UHGV virus genome: UHGV-0128346 | DNA: 30,017 nucleotides | From: a virus | Strand: one strand, 5' to 3' | Made by a program: the position numbers and the translations under genes | Shown here: one piece after another, positions 7,832-23,015 of the stretch | Layout of the letters: every line of letters begins with the position of its first letter | Numbering within the stretch: the first letter of the stretch is position 1 | Notes under the pieces: model-generated | What the model was told of the DNA's origin: nothing | The model's database searches: none | Seen by the model: the letters and a program-made list of their open reading frames with translations, nothing else

Positions 7832-7892
7832 CATCCGCATTTACCTGGTATTCCATGATGAGTTCACGCAGCGACTGATAGAGGAAGGAAAG

Positions 7893-8072
7893 ATGGTTAG
7901 CAAAAGCAAGGCGCATTGCCGCCGCATGCTGCAGGCATTGCAACAGACGAGAGCAGGTATTTTTGACCAGTTGGAAAACTGCCAGCATACTTTGCCCGAG
8001 TATATCGCCATCTCATCGGAAACCAGTGCAACTCTTATTCATCGGGTTCCACTAGAGAAAAAGAAGAAATGA
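7893..8072 (+). CDS. Hypothetical small protein (59 aa)
   Basis: Internal ATG of ORF 7719-8072 preceded by a strong GAGGAAGGAAAG ribosome-binding site; the upstream part of that ORF overlaps the previous gene in another frame. Confidence 0.3.
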   Translation: MVSKSKAHCRRMLQALQQTRAGIFDQLENCQHTLPEYIAISSETSATLIHRVPLEKKKK

Positions 8073-8194
8073 ACAGTGAGGCGTTGTGTGGCATACAACG
8101 CCTTCTTCCATCATTCCTCGTCAGCCATGACAAAAATATAACCGCTGGCTCTTTCATTTTTCTCCTGCTTCCAGCCCCTCTCTACCTGGAAGCA

Positions 8195-8521: not shown

Positions 8522-9001
8522 TTTTATTCCTACGGGTCTTATTCTGACAATATATCCTGTGTTCCAGACTGCCACATCACCACATCCTGTGCCATTATCT
8601 GACTCACATTACATACATCGCATCGGGATACAGTAGTAGCACTTTCTGTAATACAGCTTCCGGTTTCTTCCACCATCGCACCGGGATAAATCCGCGAATC
8701 ATTAACGCGGTAAAAACCCGGTGTGCATCGTTTTTAATTATTCCCGCACACTCACGCAGAAGGAATTCCCCGTCGGGCTACGGTCATGGTTAATGCGGGA
8801 ATACGGCGACGATACAGCGCAGCTAAAAGGGTAATGGACGGATAGACCGGTTTATTTCATTCTACAGGATTCTGAGTGTCCCCAACTCCCTCCAATCGTC
8901 TGAGCTCACCTGTGTAGTTTTAATTTTCATCAATCCATTTAACTATCGTTTAATTGTTGTCACATAGGATTCTGCCGTTTTTAACAATGCAGGATAATAA
9001 G

Positions 9002-9326: not shown

Positions 9327-9803
9327 CTATCTGCACTGCTCATTAATATACTTCTGGGTTCCTTCCAGTTGTTTTTGCATAGTGATCAGCCTCTCTCTGA
9401 GGGTGAAATAATCCCGTTCAGCGGTGTCTGCCAGTCGGGGGGAGGCTGCATTATCCACGCCGGAGGCGGTGGTGGCTTCACGCACTGACTGACAGACTGC
9501 TTTGATGTGCAACCGACGACGACCAGCGGCAACATCATCACGCAGAGCATCATTTTCAGCTTTCGCATCAGCTAACTCCTTCGTGTATTTTGCATCGAGC
9601 GCAGCAACATCACGCTGACGCATCTGCATGTCAGTAATTGCCGCGTTCGCCAGCTTCAGTTCTCTGGCATTTTTGTCGCGCAGGGCTTTGTAGGCGATTG
9701 CGTTATCACGGTAATGATTAACAGCCCATGACAGGCAGACGATGATGCAGATAACCAGAGCATAAATAATCGCGGCGACTCTGCTCACTGATCTATCCCC
9801 CAA
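9327..9803 (-). CDS. Rz: Rz i-spanin
   Basis: Near-identical to recalled lambda Rz ([20 protein letters not shown]...KYINEQCR). Confidence 0.95.
9386..9568 (-). CDS. Rz1: Rz1 o-spanin (nested in Rz, +1 frame)
   Basis: 60-aa nested ORF with lipobox LPLVVVGC and the proline-rich tract [15 protein letters not shown], as in lambda Rz1. Confidence 0.9.
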
Positions 9804-10318
9804 CAGGCTAATGCGCTTTCCTGGTCACGACGAATAACCTGTCCATAGCAGTTATTTGAACGTATGCGGCAATCGCGCCCACCATCTTTTATCCACCAGC
9901 GAATCGCCTCGCATGCACCTTTACGATCACCGGCATTCAGCCGCTTATAAAACGTCGACGGGAAACACTTACCGGGGCCAATGTTATAGGGACAAAATGA
10001 CGCGATACCCGCTTTCTGTGGTTCGGTCAGTGGCACTTTAATATTGCGCTCCACCCATGCCAGCGCCTTATCCCGTTCAATGGCGTTAACCTGGTCGCAT
10101 TTTTCCTTCGACAGTTTCATACCGGGAACAACGGGTTTTCCATCCACCACCGTGGCACCCCGACAGATGGTCCAGATGCCGGAACCATCGCGGTATGCCG
10201 TTGTGTGGTTACCTTCTTTTTCATCCAGAAACTGGTCGAGAATATCAGGCGCAGGCGCACCGACGGCAATCAGTGCCAGAACGGCAGCCGACAGGCCGTA
10301 TCTGATTTTTGCGTTCAT
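9785..10318 (-). CDS. R: SAR endolysin (phage 21 R-type lysozyme, GH24)
   Basis: 177 aa; N-terminal signal-anchor-release segment ([16 protein letters not shown]) then E-x8-D-x5-T catalytic spacing ([16 protein letters not shown]); paired with a pinholin upstream. Confidence 0.9.
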
Positions 10319-10423
10319 GGATATTTATCAGGATTTATCGGTTTCTGAACCCTGGATATGTTTATCTGTCCCGGCCTGTTGAATCAGGCAAGGAATAGTT
10401 AAATACAATAGAGAGGATTGTTT

Positions 10424-10696
10424 ATGGACAATAGCACCATTTCTCTACAGGAGTTGCTCGACTGCATTTCCAGGCTTCGGGATGATGTAAATGCCCTTAC
10501 TGTCGCATTTTCATATCTGGCATTCTCAATTCCCAAGGAACAAATGCAACCAACACTGGCATCGCTCCAGCTTGAATCAATCAATCCCAAATGGTCCCAG
10601 CAACAACAAAATTCTTTCAAGTGGCTGGCGGTATTACTGGAGGAAAAATATGCTGGTGAAATTACCATTTCGGCGGAGTCTTCAGTGAACCAGTAA
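10424..10696 (+). CDS. Hypothetical protein (90 aa), reverse-oriented insert inside the lysis cassette
   Basis: ATG with strong AGAGAGGA ribosome-binding site; lower GC than its flanks; possible TTGAAT/TACAAT promoter upstream; converges on and overlaps the 3' end of the minus-strand 114-aa gene by ~35 nt. Confidence 0.4.
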   Translation: MDNSTISLQELLDCISRLRDDVNALTVAFSYLAFSIPKEQMQPTLASLQLESINPKWSQQQQNSFKWLAVLLEEKYAGEITISAESSVNQ

Positions 10697-11006
10697 TTCT
10701 TCCCGGCAGTTTTCCTTTGTAGGTTATCCACACACTCTGCGCCTCTAAAATTATGGGGCGCTTTTCCGGCGACTGCTCATCCCCTCCACATAACCCGGTA
10801 GCAACATCCAGGAAGACCTGTCTGATGCTCCTTCTGGCTGCTGCCTCATAAAACTCCAGCGCGGCACCTTCAACACGGTCCAGCGAGATGTCCAGGTCAA
10901 AAATTTCACCGTCAAAGCGTTCTTTGTCCTGTAATGCTAAAGTTACCGTAACTTTATTCTCAAAATTGCGGATCCCTTTCACAATCATTTCATAGTTTTG
11001 GACCAT
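10662..11006 (-). CDS. Hypothetical protein between holin and endolysin (possibly YdfR-like)
   Basis: 114-aa ORF; its ATG is 4 nt after the holin stop with a GAGGAGA ribosome-binding site; same position as ydfR between essQ and rrrQ in prophage Qin, as I recall. Confidence 0.6.
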   Translation of the reverse strand: MVQNYEMIVKGIRNFENKVTVTLALQDKERFDGEIFDLDISLDRVEGAALEFYEAAARRSIRQVFLDVATGLCGGDEQSPEKRPIILEAQSVWITYKGKLPGRITGSLKTPPKW

Positions 11007-11010
11007 TATA

Positions 11011-11226
11011 TTACTCTCCTCTCGCAGCCTTTCTTCTGTCTTCTCTGATTTTGAAGTACAGATTCGTCAGATAAGTCAGAAAGCCCAGAACCAGACTTCC
11101 CAGTACACCAATCGCAGCCCACTGAGACGGACTAACCTGATCAAGCCATTGTAAAAACCAGTAGCCAGCACTGCCTGCGGAGGTGCCGTAGGCAATGCCT
11201 GTTGATATTTTTTCCATCTGATACAT
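11011..11226 (-). CDS. S: Pinholin (phage 21 S-type holin), dual-start MYQMEK
   Basis: From Met25 the ORF reads [66 protein letters not shown], essentially the S21 sequence as recalled; two closely spaced Met codons. Confidence 0.85.
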
Positions 11227-11682: not shown

Positions 11683-11740
11683 TTCCTTGCCGCCCGTGCC
11701 TCCCAGCGCGGGCTTTTTTATCCAAAAAATACCCCTCCGG
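11683..11740. terminator. Back-to-back intrinsic terminators sharing a T6/A6 tract (plus-strand hairpin ~11683-11704, minus-strand hairpin ~11721-11740)
   Basis: GCCCG...CGGGC followed by TTTTTT on the plus strand; TACCCCTC-CGGA-GAGGGGTA preceded by AAAAAA on the plus strand, i.e. followed by U6 on the minus strand. Confidence 0.6.
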
Positions 11741-12028
11741 AGAGGGGTATCATACAAGGGGATGACCATGATGCATGGTGCCGGGTGCCTCCCGGTGAGT
11801 CCGGCATCAGCATACGAACCCGCGATTATCCCAGAACTGACTGCTGATTCGCCCCGCCGCTTAGGGGGATTCACCATGCGTTTTTTTATTTACAAACTCT
11901 TCGCCAGACAAACAACCATTAACTGGCTGAATTGTGAGGTATTTCAATTTTTAGAAAACTGACCAACCTCCGCTTATACGCCGGGCATGGAGCGGATACA
12001 AAAAAGCCCCGCAAAAGCAGATCAGAAG

Positions 12029-14591: not shown

Positions 14592-15344
14592 TTATCTCGT
14601 CACCTTTCTCAATTGTGCTTCAGCGAATGCTTCTTCCTGCCAGCACTTTGTTACCAGTTTATCAATGACGTCTGCATATCCTTTGTACCACTGATAATCA
14701 GTCAGGTCTGGTACCAGCTTCTGGACATGACGTCGTGCCAGTGTGGTCGGTAAACGACTAAACCGGTTTCCATTGCAACGCCCACAAATCTTATAAACAG
14801 GCGCGCCATGAAGCCGGGTTCTTTTTTCATCCAGGACAATGCCTTTACCCTTACACCCTCTGCAAGCCGTGCTGACTTCTCCCTTACCATGGCAATGCTG
14901 ACATAATTCCTTCACCCACTCTTCCTTGATAACAGATTCCCCGCTTCTGGAGTGTTTCACCACTTCGCGCAATACACTATGAAATCCAGTACCAGCACAA
15001 TGCTCACAGCGAGCCTTACTTGCCGCAGACCTGGAATAATCAGCAAAGGCAAAACTCACAAGGTAAGGGATGATCTGTAACCGGGTTTCTTCACTCAATT
15101 TGTTCAATGTCGGGTTATCCATTGCCATCGCGTAATTGAGCAGACCTTCAATCGCAAACTGAGGATCCTGAACACCAACTTTTGCCAGGAATAAGGCAAA
15201 CCCAAGCGGTGCTTTCGACTGCACCATCCCCTGCGCAGCCATCACATCCGTAATCGTTAAACCACCTGAGCCTGTCGCCGGTGCGTCATCGCTCAATTTT
15301 GGAGATTTTGGGGAGTAATATTTTGGTAAGGCTTCAAGGTTCAT
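14592..15344 (-). CDS. Q: Late-gene antiterminator Q (lambda Q family, 250 aa)
   Basis: Matches recalled lambda Q: YYSPKSPKLSDDAPATGSGGLTITDVMAAQGM, FAFADYSRSAASKARCEHCAGTG, C-terminal ...VTR; Cys-rich zinc-binding motifs; same length as the Qin prophage homologue. Confidence 0.85.
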   Translation of the reverse strand: MNLEALPKYYSPKSPKLSDDAPATGSGGLTITDVMAAQGMVQSKAPLGFALFLAKVGVQDPQFAIEGLLNYAMAMDNPTLNKLSEETRLQIIPYLVSFAFADYSRSAASKARCEHCAGTGFHSVLREVVKHSRSGESVIKEEWVKELCQHCHGKGEVSTACRGCKGKGIVLDEKRTRLHGAPVYKICGRCNGNRFSRLPTTLARRHVQKLVPDLTDYQWYKGYADVIDKLVTKCWQEEAFAEAQLRKVTR

Positions 15345-20238: not shown

Positions 20239-20780
20239 TTGCGCCCCCTTACCTCTGAAGGGTTCAGCGACAAATTTATGAGACTGGCCAGTAGCGCCGC
20301 GTCGTTGATGCGGTCATACAGACTTACAGCCAGCGGGGATTCGGCTTTTGCCAACATGGGATAAAGCTGCTGCAGCCAGACCTGATGAATTGATGAAATG
20401 TAGGAATAGAGAACGCTGGCGTTATGTGCAACGTCGCTCAGTACAGAGGGATTTGAAAGCTGTTTCTCCATCTGGTTAAAGGCATTGATGTATGCCTCTT
20501 TGAACCGGGCAGCACGTTTCCCCGTGAAGCCCATGGCAAGAAACGCAAAACCGTCGCGGGTGATTTGGTAACAAGGGAGTTTGCGGCCTGTGCAATCGGT
20601 GTAATCACTGGGCTGAAAATTCAGCTCAGTGAATTCAACAGAGCACTCAAGCGTCTGGATTTTTTGAATAACGTTTTTGTGCTGCTTGCAGAAATATTCG
20701 GCAACGGCCAAAGAAGAGGTAACAGCCTTCCCATGGATAACATCAATTTTAGGGTGAGTTTGGGTAGGGGTGGTTGCCAT
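20235..20780 (-). CDS. Phage regulatory protein Rha
   Basis: From the internal Met, VTSSLAVAEYFCKQHKNVIQKI...YQITRDGFAFLAMGFTGKRAARFKEAYINAF matches the Rha N-terminal domain; GAGGA ribosome-binding site 9 nt upstream. Confidence 0.7.
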   Translation of the reverse strand: MATTPTQTHPKIDVIHGKAVTSSLAVAEYFCKQHKNVIQKIQTLECSVEFTELNFQPSDYTDCTGRKLPCYQITRDGFAFLAMGFTGKRAARFKEAYINAFNQMEKQLSNPSVLSDVAHNASVLYSYISSIHQVWLQQLYPMLAKAESPLAVSLYDRINDAALLASLINLSLNPSEVRGRK

Positions 20781-20942
20781 AGTGACATCCTCATGTGCGA
20801 ATTTTGAAAACTCACCACATGGGACGCCAATCACAGAGGTGGTGAGACGTACAGGGTTGGCGTAACCGGTCGCACATGACCCCGGCGCATCTTTCGATGC
20901 CCCTGCACGCCCCACCATAATTTGGATGTGAGGAAACGTGCG

Positions 20943-20966
20943 CAAAAAAACCGCTGAAGCGCGGTT
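20943..20966 (-). terminator. tR1-like intrinsic terminator in the early-right operon
   Basis: ACCGC-TGAAGC-GCGGT hairpin followed by U7 on the minus strand. Confidence 0.5.
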
Positions 20967-21376
20967 ATGCGCATGTGCGAATTTCAGGACGCCAATCCCG
21001 GCACCCGCTTTATAAGGTGCCTGAACAGTGTAACGTCCCGGAATTGCAGAATCAATATGCTGGTGGTCCTTCACACTCAACAAAATCACGCCTGAATTTC
21101 CACAAAGGACTAAAGCACTCATGCGGGTAGTCTTTGCGAAGATAGATAACGCGCTGTGTTTCTGGCTCCCAACGAATAACATGGACATAAAGCCCTCTTC
21201 CGTCACGAAACCAGCGGTTAAGTTCCTGCACAACTCGCCCCCCACAGTCAGGTAAAGTTCTCTGTGGTTACTTACAGCCAGGTGATTTGGTAATCTGCAT
21301 TCATGCCGTAACAACAGGTGTTCAGCGACGCTGACCACCAGCTGTTGCGACAAACGGTTATTTGCCGTTAAACTAT

Positions 21377-21946
21377 TCATGCGTTAGTTTCTCCACAACC
21401 AGAAGCAATCGACGCCACGACGCCCGGAGCTGCACACTCGCGGGCGTTACTCTTTTCTGGAGCGCAGAAGATTTTGTAGACCAGTGCTGCATGCTCCTGG
21501 AGCTTCGAAATTGAAAGATACAGTTCGTCGTTAATTGCTGTCTTCTCATGCGGTTCCACTACACCGTCTTCGATTGCTGAACGAATCTGTCTGGAATAAC
21601 TGCCGATCTGTTCAATGACTTCCAGCAGGCGCTGGTTTATATCGGCGTTCTCTACTGCCTCAATTTCAGGAAGCGATACGAACACCCCACCAGCAGACTG
21701 TGCGACAGCATCCGCAATGTAGTGAGTGCCAGCCGCACGCTGTAAAACCATTGCCCATCCCAGCGGGAAAATCTGATCGCCATCTGCACGAAGGCGGTTG
21801 AATAATGCGTTCTCTGTTACATCCAGCCACTCAGCAGCTTCAGCGTAACCCCCCGGCAACGCCGCGATAGTTTTTCTGACAGCTTTCACGTACCACTCAG
21901 GCTGTTTTTCTACTTTCCAGTGATGCTTACCCACGGTTAGCCTCAT
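21377..21946 (-). CDS. CII/YdaT-like regulatory protein (189 aa)
   Basis: Immediately follows the Cro/YdaS-like gene, as ydaT follows ydaS in prophage Rac; weak resemblance to 186-type CII; family not confirmed. Confidence 0.4.
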   Translation of the reverse strand: MRLTVGKHHWKVEKQPEWYVKAVRKTIAALPGGYAEAAEWLDVTENALFNRLRADGDQIFPLGWAMVLQRAAGTHYIADAVAQSAGGVFVSLPEIEAVENADINQRLLEVIEQIGSYSRQIRSAIEDGVVEPHEKTAINDELYLSISKLQEHAALVYKIFCAPEKSNARECAAPGVVASIASGCGETNA

Positions 21947-22268: not shown

Positions 22269-22943
22269 ATGAAAACAGTCCATGACATCCGGCGGTCTAA
22301 CGCCAGAAAACTGAGAGATGGTGTTGGCGGGAATTCTTCCTTTGCCACCATGATTGATCGCGAGCCAACCCAGACCAGCAGGTTTATGGGAGATGGTGCT
22401 ACTAAAAATATCGGTGACAGCATGGCACGGCACATCGAAAAATGTTTCGACCTGCCTGTCGGATGGCTTGATCAAGAACACCAGACAACAAACATCACAA
22501 AAAAACCTGATGTTTCAATTACTAACAAACAAATAACGTTAGTCCCTGTCATATCATGGGTACAGGCCGGAGCATGGAAAGAAGTTGGCTATTCTGAGGT
22601 TGATTTGAGCACAGCAGAAACTTATCCCTGCCCTGTACCCTGTGGCGAAATGACTTATATCTTGCGGGTGATTGGTGATTCAATGATTGATGAGTACCGC
22701 CCGGGAGACATGATTTTTGTTGATCCCGAAGTCCCTGCCTGCCACGGTGACGACGTTATTGCATTGATGCACGATACAGGCGAAACCACCTTCAAGCGAT
22801 TGATAGAAGATGGAACACAGCGTTATCTCAAAGCATTAAACCCAAACTGGCCTGAGCCTTACATTAAGATTAACGGTAATTGCTCTATAATTGGTACAGT
22901 AATTTTCTCAGGAAAACCAAGAAGATACAAAATAAAGGCCTAA
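22269..22943 (+). CDS. cI: cI-like prophage repressor (HTH plus S24 LexA-like autopeptidase)
   Basis: C-terminal half matches the S24 fold of recalled P22 C2 and lambda cI (ISWVQAG, GDSM, PGDMIFVDPE, TFKRL, LNPNWP, INGNCSIIG). Confidence 0.85.
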   Translation: MKTVHDIRRSNARKLRDGVGGNSSFATMIDREPTQTSRFMGDGATKNIGDSMARHIEKCFDLPVGWLDQEHQTTNITKKPDVSITNKQITLVPVISWVQAGAWKEVGYSEVDLSTAETYPCPVPCGEMTYILRVIGDSMIDEYRPGDMIFVDPEVPACHGDDVIALMHDTGETTFKRLIEDGTQRYLKALNPNWPEPYIKINGNCSIIGTVIFSGKPRRYKIKA

Positions 22944-22954
22944 TCAATATTTAT

Positions 22955-22978
22955 AACCTGCTTCGGCAGGTTTTTTTA
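22955..22978 (+). terminator. Intrinsic terminator after cI
   Basis: ACCTGC-TTCG-GCAGGT hairpin followed by T7, 12 nt after the cI stop. Confidence 0.7.
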
Positions 22979-22981
22979 TAC

Positions 22982-23015
22982 TTGACAATGTACCATTGAG
23001 ATACATAATGTATCT
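22982..23015 (+). promoter_or_regulatory. PL-like promoter (TTGACA-N16-CATAAT) with overlapping 17-bp palindromic operator AGATACAT-A-ATGTATCT
   Basis: Consensus-like sigma70 hexamers; perfect palindrome across the -10 element; position corresponds to lambda PL/OL. Confidence 0.6.

Follow-up and report, generated by a model that had tools for sequence, protein, structure and literature searches.

What occupies the 600-bp interval between the CII-like gene ymfL and the regulator gene rha in the virus genome UHGV-0128346, and why does a frame of 381 codons stay open right across it into rha? We investigated this question in a 30,017-nt stretch of that genome (henceforth the window); all coordinates refer to this whole stretch, and all features of the interval lie on its minus strand. 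A sequence-only reading of the same DNA had described the interval as an open frame with no recognisable gene, carrying a terminator and a 26-nt direct repeat, and had considered a frameshifted or fused gene, a nut- or put-like cis element, or regulator-binding repeats controlling rha. The open frame is indeed there, but the interval is not without genes, as it holds a small protein gene of the DUF4222 family and two RNA genes. We conclude with considerable confidence that it is an antisense-RNA control module of the P1, P4 and Gifsy-1 type, placed ahead of rha, which encodes a regulator of the Bro family. The parts of such a module, their structure, their complementarity, their covariation and a maintained reading frame are all observed here.

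We scanned the whole window with Rfam covariance models and found that two of them, isrK and C4, matched the interval over their full length and above their gathering thresholds (Table 1). The first match is an IsrK-like small RNA (sRNA), in which a 5' hairpin is followed by a hairpin displaying the element a1 in its loop, by the element b1 and by an intrinsic terminator. The second, starting 21 nt beyond the end of the sRNA, is a C4-type antisense RNA that, judged by its sequence, is the counterpart of P1/P7 C4, P4 CI and Salmonella STnc1160. The window copy of C4 has a minimum free energy of -46.5 kcal/mol (z -5.1). Its fold, i.e., a long outer stem enclosing two hairpins, is retained in 36 distinct relatives, where 99.8% of the cells in its 27 pairs are paired, compared with 35-48% in slid controls; 12 of the pairs show two-sided changes, a number that was reached in 0 out of 500 shuffles. 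A further model, RF03163 (c4-a1b1), matched weakly at 21033-20981, with 21.6 bits against a gathering threshold of 46.7.

The direct repeat links these two RNAs with each other and with rha. It lies where the sequence-only reading had placed it and exceeds chance expectation, but it is not 26 nt long; it really consists of two blocks of 11 and 13 nt, because the gap between the blocks is 2 nt in the upstream copy and 17 nt in the downstream copy. For block 1 (GATTGGCGTCC, present as a1 and a2) there were 0 matches in 100 dinucleotide shuffles (0.00 expected), and for block 2 (AAATTCGCACATG, present as b1 and b2) the shuffles gave 0.12 matches expected by chance. The upstream copy is part of the IsrK-like RNA. 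C4 carries partners for both blocks: b' (UCAUGUGCGA) forms a hairpin loop and a' (ACGCCAACCC) an unpaired joint, and each is complementary to its two repeat copies (Table 1). In the downstream copy, b2 covers the first two bases of the rha Shine-Dalgarno (SD) sequence, and this target region folds at z -3.45 with the SD sequence paired.

We then assessed whether the repeats and the RNA between them vary together among phages. About 120 further loci came from a pattern scan of viral contigs, for a total of 110 unique modules with 39 types of b' loop and a' segment, and covariation was measured without an alignment, by comparing complementarity within a locus (own-locus) with that of an RNA paired with the flanks of another type (cross-locus). 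We found a perfect complement of 7-8 nt between a' and a2 in 39 of 39 types, at a nearly fixed place (cross-locus mean longest match 4.7 nt), and one of 6-8 nt between a' and a1, again in 39 of 39 (cross-locus mean 4.9 nt). For the b elements the mean longest match was 8.1 nt with b2 and 6.9 nt with b1, against cross-locus values of 4.7 nt and 4.6 nt, respectively. Own-locus complements thus exceed cross-locus ones throughout, meaning that the repeats vary among phages but always together with the intervening RNA. Among the scanned contigs (L018-L137) there is independent assortment of a and b specificities, in that one b' loop is found with different a' segments and the reverse, and the a sites are far less diverse than the b sites, with UUGGCGU dominating. 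Column-based counts of a'-a2 and b'-b2 pairs on an alignment (A1) were dropped, as a2 changes register from type to type through 3-nt indels.

These data also bear on an alternative that regards the repeats as operators for a DNA-binding protein (e.g., Rha or the CII-like protein) and the terminator as a simple tR1. Two near-identical bipartite repeats flanking a terminator just upstream of a regulator gene are what one might expect of operators, but the structured RNA between the copies contains a complement of each block, and the repeats change only together with those complements in the 39 types. Moreover, block spacings of 2 nt and 17 nt suit RNA loops rather than a fixed operator, and the copies are direct repeats without dyad symmetry. 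We therefore give operators hardly any credence. Of the three earlier ideas, regulator-binding repeats controlling rha nevertheless came closest, except that the regulator is an RNA and the repeats are C4 target sites.

A separate observation concerns the sequence GUGGUGAG (20818-20811) between a2 and b2, which complements the 3' strand of the C4 outer stem (20846-20838). The resulting helix would loop out a2 in a hairpin and would compete with the folding of C4. The 36 relatives retain 92.9% pairing in this helix, mostly with invariant sequence, and counterparts in P4 (GGCGAUAGC with GCUAUCGCC) and in P1 show matching changes by eye.

The terminator reported in the interval is present (hairpin -9.4 kcal/mol, z -2.7), and in aligned relatives other than L016 its position is conserved with compensatory changes in the stem. 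Specifically, repeats and terminator keep their positions in 16 out of 17 aligned loci, the 17th being L016, which has no recognisable terminator; the isrK element itself was found in all 16 related phage loci (sub-gathering only in L016) and in P4. The terminator does occupy a tR1-like position in the rightward operon, as had been suggested, and what it terminates is the IsrK-like sRNA. This location between cro/cII-like and replication genes, together with the finding of no recognisable N homologue among four sampled open reading frames (ORFs) beyond cI (PHROGs; not searched in depth), could also point to an RNA in front of the replication genes that mediates antitermination in cis, like nut or put. 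However, the covariance models for isrK and C4, taken with their target sites, account for every conserved element of the interval and for all its conserved structure. The element further combines promoter-like and terminator features, its conserved unpaired segments complement the ribosome-binding region of rha (models specific to nut or put were not run), and its homologues precede anti-repressor genes in non-lambdoid contexts (P1, P4, P2-like phages and nin regions). A nut/put element is thus an explanation to which we assign next to no probability.

Table 1. Features of the interval and its surroundings (positions in the 30,017-nt window).
Feature	Position	Strand	Evidence or remarks
IsrK-like sRNA (counterpart of P4 seqA region)	21020-20944	-	Rfam RF01394, 62.3 bits (gathering 50), E 4e-12, model 1-77/77
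Intrinsic terminator	20966-20944	-	stem-loop AACCGC-GCTTCA-GCGGTT 20966-20949 (6-bp stem with 4 GC pairs, 6-nt loop); 7-T (7 U) run 20950-20944
Upstream repeat copy a1/b1, within IsrK-like RNA	20997-20972	-	complementary to a' and b'
Repeat block 1 (a1/a2)	20997-20987 and 20832-20822	-	11/11 identical
Repeat block 2 (b1/b2)	20984-20972 and 20804-20792	-	13/13 identical
C4-type antisense RNA	20922-20835	-	Rfam RF01695, 75.1 bits (gathering 45), model 1-87/87
ATG within C4 5' stem	20918-20916	-	homologous to Gifsy-1 orf45 start
b', C4 hairpin loop	20879-20870	-	10/10 complement of b2, 9/9 of b1
a', unpaired C4 joint	20863-20854	-	9/10 with a1; perfect 7 nt with a2
Downstream target copy	a2 20832-20822; b2 20804-20791; SD GAGGA 20792-20788	-	
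rha, 181 aa (putatively regulated cargo gene)	20780-20235	-	Pfam PF09669 E 3e-32; TIGR02681 E 8e-34; phrog_821
381-codon eta-like frame	21380-20235	-	ATG overlaps ymfL/cII-like stop (ATGA, 21380-21377); putatively translated
Putative sRNA-operon promoter, sigma-70-like	21055-21027	-	read from the sequence; predicted function
Elements of putative promoter	-35 TTGATT 21055-21050; -10 TACACT 21032-21027; +1 G 21020	-	17-nt spacer; 6 nt between -10 and +1
DUF4222 small protein gene, 59 aa	21231-21052	-	other frame than long ORF; Pfam PF13973 E 9.4e-14; phrog_1343 E 1.9e-36
CII-like YmfL gene	21946-21377	-	Pfam Phage_CP76
Cro/YdaS-like gene	22178-21978	-	
CI-like repressor gene	22269-22943	+	
Order beyond ymfL: 600-bp interval, rha, 74-aa ORF, O-like replication gene	rha from 20780	-	

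To place the module among known systems, we compared it with 16 related phage loci, which come from Gifsy-1, phage cdtI, mEp460, phiP27, several Stx phages, a P2-like phage and an epsilon15-like phage, among others, and with P1 and P4. isrK followed by C4 was found in all 16 loci, and in 15 of them C4 was in turn followed by a gene of the Bro network (encoding Rha, ORF6N, or Bro-N with or without P22_AR_C), the exception being L016; the order of elements recurs in P4 and in P1. A tie of C4 and isrK to P4 CI and seqA and to Bro-network genes has already been published (PMC10111431). The locus studied here has the sequence and structural hallmarks of C4, of isrK and of P4-type nested genes.

With the immI operon of phages P1 and P7 the correspondence extends to each element. 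The layout curated for P1 (P51b, a1, b1, c4, a2, b2 abutting the SD sequence, icd) is matched element for element, and so are the sizes of the sites, i.e., 7 nt for the a sites and 8-10 nt for the b sites. The C4 RNA of P1/P7 is processed by RNase P from the operon transcript to a stable RNA of about 77 nt, represses translation and causes Rho-dependent polarity. P1 differs from our locus in that it lacks a strong isrK-type terminator (the isrK model scores 35 bits, below gathering), has stops in all frames across c4, has its promoter under the control of a C1 operator, and has icd, coupled to ant, as the first gene rather than rha.

In Gifsy-1, the arrangement isrK-orf45(STnc1160)-anrP has the same isrK and C4 elements in the same order, at the same spacing and with the promoter in the same place. 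The two loci also have in common the ATG in the C4 5' stem, a cargo gene for a Bro-network protein (AnrP in Gifsy-1), and the 54 nt between the end of C4 and the ATG of the cargo gene. There, the isrK promoter drives the operon, anrP remains untranslated until IsrK is supplied in trans (a 139-fold effect), upon which the prophage is induced, and compensatory mutations prove that the middle of IsrK pairs with the orf45/STnc1160 region (Hershko-Shalev et al. 2016, PMC4825925). A short sRNA thereby activates the translation of the long transcript that contains it, and it is for Gifsy-1 only that Hfq binding by IsrK and trans-activation of its own read-through mRNA have been shown (PMC4825925). 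The two loci differ in several respects. The Gifsy-1 orf45 is a separate ORF of 45 codons that ends ATGA on anrP, whereas in the window this ATG belongs to a frame that continues into rha, so that the separate coupled orf45 specific to Gifsy-1 is absent. The b' loop is shorter in Gifsy-1 (8 nt, against 12 nt in the window), a long upstream frame is missing from Gifsy-1 (3 stops), its locus lies after Q rather than after cII, and AnrP is an ORF6N protein unrelated to Rha.

In the satellite phage P4, an Rfam scan located the isrK-like seqA at 8692-8615 and CI, the C4 equivalent, at 8507-8420. As here, the order is an isrK-like seqA with its terminator, a C4-family CI RNA, seqC (the counterpart of a2/b2) and a short gene, and the kil ATG lies 54 nt past the CI RNA. 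The P4 eta frame begins ATGA on the stop of ORF88, at a point upstream of the internal promoter, and from there crosses both RNAs in the frame of kil, just as the long frame in the window does in that of rha. Specifically, the eta start (ATGATGATG, at 8767, 8764 or 8761) overlaps the ORF88 stop and gives a protein of 199, 198 or 197 amino acids (aa), of which kil makes up the last 65 codons. The N-termini of the nested genes are also alike (MATTLTPSHPEF in Kil, MATTPTQTHPKI in Rha). Nonsense mutations in the P4 eta frame are said to cause termination, in work by Forti from 1999. Kil is translated only upon read-through, full-length Eta only from the upstream promoter and coupled to the upstream gene, and Eta translation prevents termination (PMC10111431). 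Differences from P4 include the cargo (Rha, a winged-helix Bro-type protein of 181 aa, in place of the 65-aa Kil), the host element (a lambdoid prophage, whose early rightward operon takes the place of P4 PLL), the DUF4222 gene inserted out of frame within the long ORF, the spacer between seqA and CI (21 nt here vs. 107 nt in P4) and the a and b recognition sequences themselves.

Upstream of the sRNA, we assigned a putative promoter by positional conservation. The arrangement TTGAYN-17-TAYAYT occurs at the same place in most aligned relatives, Gifsy-1 included, and its position coincides with that of P51b, the curated, mapped promoter of P1. We thus propose it as the putative counterpart of PisrK, P4 PLE and P1 P51b, and as putatively constitutive. 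The TGA stop of the DUF4222 gene falls within its -35 hexamer. This small gene is already present in RefSeq as WP_001379286.1. In comparison with two Stx phages that are about 80% diverged in this part (L007 and L008), changes in the DUF4222 frame were overwhelmingly synonymous and in third positions, which argues that it is a real gene and that the long frame is not protein-constrained there. The 44-aa plus-strand ORF (~21121-21255) that had been put forward for a conservation search proved to be an antisense shadow of DUF4222: it is interrupted by a stop in the relative L008 and has no family match. Neither the 103-aa leader nor DUF4222 nor the 74-aa ORF beyond rha matched a model in NCBIfam.

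Two Chi octamers (GCTGGTGG) in opposite orientations flank the DUF4222 region, at 21059-21066 (+) and 21342-21335 (-). The first reads CCACCAGC on the minus strand, lies directly 5' of the -35 hexamer and has been kept at several distinct mosaic junctions in relatives, which hints that the retained Chi marks a recombination boundary of the module.

We next considered the long frame itself. Its coupling to the upstream stop through ATGA at 21380 and its 381 codons were confirmed, as was the clean start of the Rha domain at Met201 (the ATG at 20780, preceded by GAGGA as its own SD sequence): Phage_pRha in Pfam covers aa 221-306 of the frame, and TIGR02681 begins at aa 210. Along its way into rha, the frame traverses DUF4222 (out of frame), the promoter, IsrK, the terminator and C4, and the ATG in the C4 5' stem lies in it too, 46 codons upstream of Met201 with no stop between. 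One explanation is that the interval is simply coding, i.e., that it forms the N-terminal 'Ash domain' of a single Rha protein of about 380 aa, with the RNA-family matches a by-product of conserved coding sequence. Homologues are indeed annotated in GenBank as one coding sequence of about 382 aa (cdtI orf44, mEp460 gp41, PhiR47_1 and phiSTEC1575), phrog_821 and phrog_995 model the long form, Pfam PF10554 (Phage_ASH) matches aa 117-211 of the frame (21032-20748; E 1.7e-14), and the frame is kept open in the clade described below.

However, sequence changes in the interval obey the rules of RNA (compensatory stem pairs) and not those of protein, as the three a and the three b sites vary jointly and keep their complementarity, whereas the residues they encode are free to change, and the N-terminal region displays neither the amino-acid conservation nor the synonymous bias of a protein. 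The first ~110 codons overlap DUF4222, which bears the synonymous signature in its own frame, and both P1 and the Gifsy-1 clade break the frame yet retain the RNAs. In P4, PF10554 matches an obsolete 137-aa 'cI' ORF over the CI RNA (the distal part of eta), hence no characterised protein domain. The refuting condition set in the sequence-only reading thus has a mixed outcome: homologues are annotated as single proteins of ~382 aa, but repeats and terminator keep their positions in the aligned loci (L016 aside for the terminator) and the repeats vary together with the RNA. We conclude that the interval is not simply coding, and a single Ash-Rha protein as its explanation appears very improbable to us. 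The earlier suggestion of a frameshifted or fused gene was half right: the first ~110 codons encode no conserved protein, yet the part of the frame that crosses the RNA genes remains open in a clade and corresponds to P4 eta, with rha in the place of kil.

The PF10554 translation overlies the IsrK and C4 RNA genes, and the regions compared for PF10554 and PF25738 in P4 (L138) are 8584-8168 and 7888-8175. PF10554 has been called a domain 'of the ASH protein of P4' (PMC8951638) and has served as an epsilon marker for P4-like satellites (PMC8628076). We considered the equation of Ash with the P4 epsilon anti-repressor as support for a protein domain and rejected it, since epsilon corresponds to PF25738 and PF10554 to the ORF over the CI RNA.

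To examine whether the frame is maintained from the sRNA start to the rha ATG, we defined a clade by the 5' hairpin of the sRNA alone, which gave 56 unique modules with a recognisable downstream gene, representing 19 specificity types. In 51 of these, where the distance from the sRNA start to the ATG of the gene is 240, 243 or 246 nt, we found 0 stops in the frame of the gene; in the other two frames of the same sequences, by contrast, there were 18 and 19 distinct stop sites touching variable columns. The remaining five sequences measure 254 nt and have a different frame open. An in-frame ATG is supplied independently at four or five upstream junctions, at several of them together with GGAGG, and the start ATGA on an upstream stop is found here, in cdtI and in mEp460, and also in phiP27 and P4 with different upstream genes. 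The fused form, in which the ATG at 20918 is in frame with the cargo gene, accounts for 53 of 95 unique modules. Given the lack of stops, the length classes and the independent ATG junctions, the long frame is probably no accident and is maintained although the amino acids of its variable part are not.

Some of these junctions touch on the 74-aa ORF (20238-20014, phrog_1153), which starts ATGA on the rha stop. In the second module of L089, the first ~15 codons of this ORF are fused directly to the promoter junction, and in several other loci a GGAGG-ATGATCCGC start at the same junction, which matches the first 8 nt of the start of the 74-aa ORF, is the in-frame start of the long ORF.

Several points weigh against our reading of the interval, the first of which concern the frame. 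The chance of it being open across the 180-nt overlap with DUF4222 is ~0.04, which is only modestly low and suggestive at best, and stops occur in all three frames across P1 c4 and in the downstream-gene frame of the Gifsy-1 clade, meaning that an eta-like frame is not general in the family. Both points would suit an alternative that accepts the RNA module but treats the long frame as accidental, a result of descent and of GC-rich structured sequence, such that only rha from Met201 (and perhaps a short ORF from the ATG at 20918) is translated. DUF4222 occupying another frame favours this alternative as well, and so does the upstream 360 nt being ~98% identical among the closest relatives, which are thus not independent. 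It does not, however, readily account for the contrast of 0 against 18 and 19 stop sites in a clade of 19 specificity types, for lengths restricted to three classes (bar the five with a different open frame), or for the recurrent acquisition of in-frame starts, and the P4 eta mechanism (PMC10111431) provides a precedent for a functional frame. We regard an accidental frame as unlikely, though it is the alternative we take most seriously.

The other unfavourable points concern the promoter, the cargo and the mechanism. A promoter scan made no call at the sRNA start, where the putative promoter is unlisted because it matches only 8 of 12 consensus positions. BLASTP of Rha against Gifsy-1 AnrP found no significant similarity, and the aligned N-terminus of Rha resembles P4 Kil over only about the first dozen residues; actions downstream of the switch, such as the activation of antQ by AnrP, are therefore not transferable to Rha. 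The mechanistic steps set out below are drawn by analogy from the homologous systems of P1, P4 and Gifsy-1. Finally, the a1/b1 RNA acts as an activator or decoy in Gifsy-1 and as a co-target of termination in P4, while its role in P1 is undefined, so the sign of its effect here is uncertain.

By analogy with these systems, an antisense-RNA module ahead of rha could work as follows. In a lysogen, the internal promoter would be constitutive and most transcripts would end at the terminator, yielding a short a1/b1 sRNA. Transcripts that read through would be processed to a stable C4 RNA, which would pair with a2/b2, block ribosome entry at rha and probably exert polarity on the downstream replication genes. 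The short a1/b1 RNA might compete for C4, or for a'/b' of the long transcript, in which case its rise would switch rha translation on. Upon firing of the early rightward promoter, ribosomes arriving by coupling from the cII-like gene may go on to translate the long ORF through the terminator and C4; such translation, as with P4 eta, would stop both from folding and would allow rha and the replication genes to be expressed regardless of C4. One may speculate further that in this clade of lambdoid prophages the module is deliberately embedded in a translated frame, which begins on the cII-like stop and passes across the out-of-frame DUF4222 gene, that coupled read-through from the early rightward promoter replaces N/nut antitermination at the tR1 position and yields a long Rha isoform, and that interchangeable a/b specificities, of which 39 were observed, form a second, RNA-based immunity code by which co-resident prophages (up to 4 copies per E. 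coli genome) would ignore each other or cross-talk. We consider this extension possible but on balance doubtful.

By its gene order (cI-, cro- and cII-like genes, the interval, rha and an O-like gene), the locus is the early right operon of a lambdoid prophage, and a Q-like antiterminator gene (14592-15344, -) lies farther along. The 751-nt region was matched in 2304 out of 5426 complete E. coli genomes (~42%), at up to 4 places per genome and with 17 matches on plasmids; co-resident modules, and with them possible RNA cross-talk, are thus common. A 100% identical sequence is present in prophages of E. coli O104:H4 (outbreak strains) and of other strains, and close relatives of the module are found in Stx phages. 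Since the homologous switch in Gifsy-1 controls induction (PMC4825925), the module is a plausible control point for induction or entry into replication, Stx phages included.

The inspected records of the closest relatives annotate neither RNA gene, and the starts annotated for rha correspond to proteins of 181 to 383 aa, with names including 'peptidase', 'putative antirepressor', 'antirepressor' and 'transcriptional regulator'. PGAP picks a 295-aa Rha that overlaps DUF4222, and GenBank genes of 382-383 aa run through the RNAs (divergent starts: L001, 2829-3716; L003, L004, L006 and L017, 881-2032; L007 and L008, 1013-; L009, 1185-1844). The interval is thus a widespread and ordinary C4/IsrK antisense-RNA module that is usually masked by an over-long 'Rha' annotation. 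Conceptually this adds nothing new, and its main value lies in annotation: recognising the module corrects the start of rha and reveals two RNA genes that go unannotated in about two-fifths of the complete genomes of E. coli. It also accounts for the Pfam 'Ash domain', which had been described, without an assigned function, in the regulatory regions of Stx phages (PMC8951638).

In some viral contigs we also found tandem arrays of complete modules, each with promoter, IsrK, C4, targets and a small Rha-like gene. One contig (L040) has three C4 copies 656 nt apart (9712-11108), each unit with its own a/b specificity, and two others (L070 and L089) have two copies each. Elsewhere in the window, the Rfam scan gave a sub-threshold match to STnc370 (29.6 bits, gathering 54) at 22946-23013 (-), just past the 3' end of the cI-like gene and consisting mainly of a terminator-like hairpin, and a strong match to STnc100 (RF02076, 114.5 bits) at 11720-11908 (-), about 2.7 kb downstream of the Q-like gene on the same strand.

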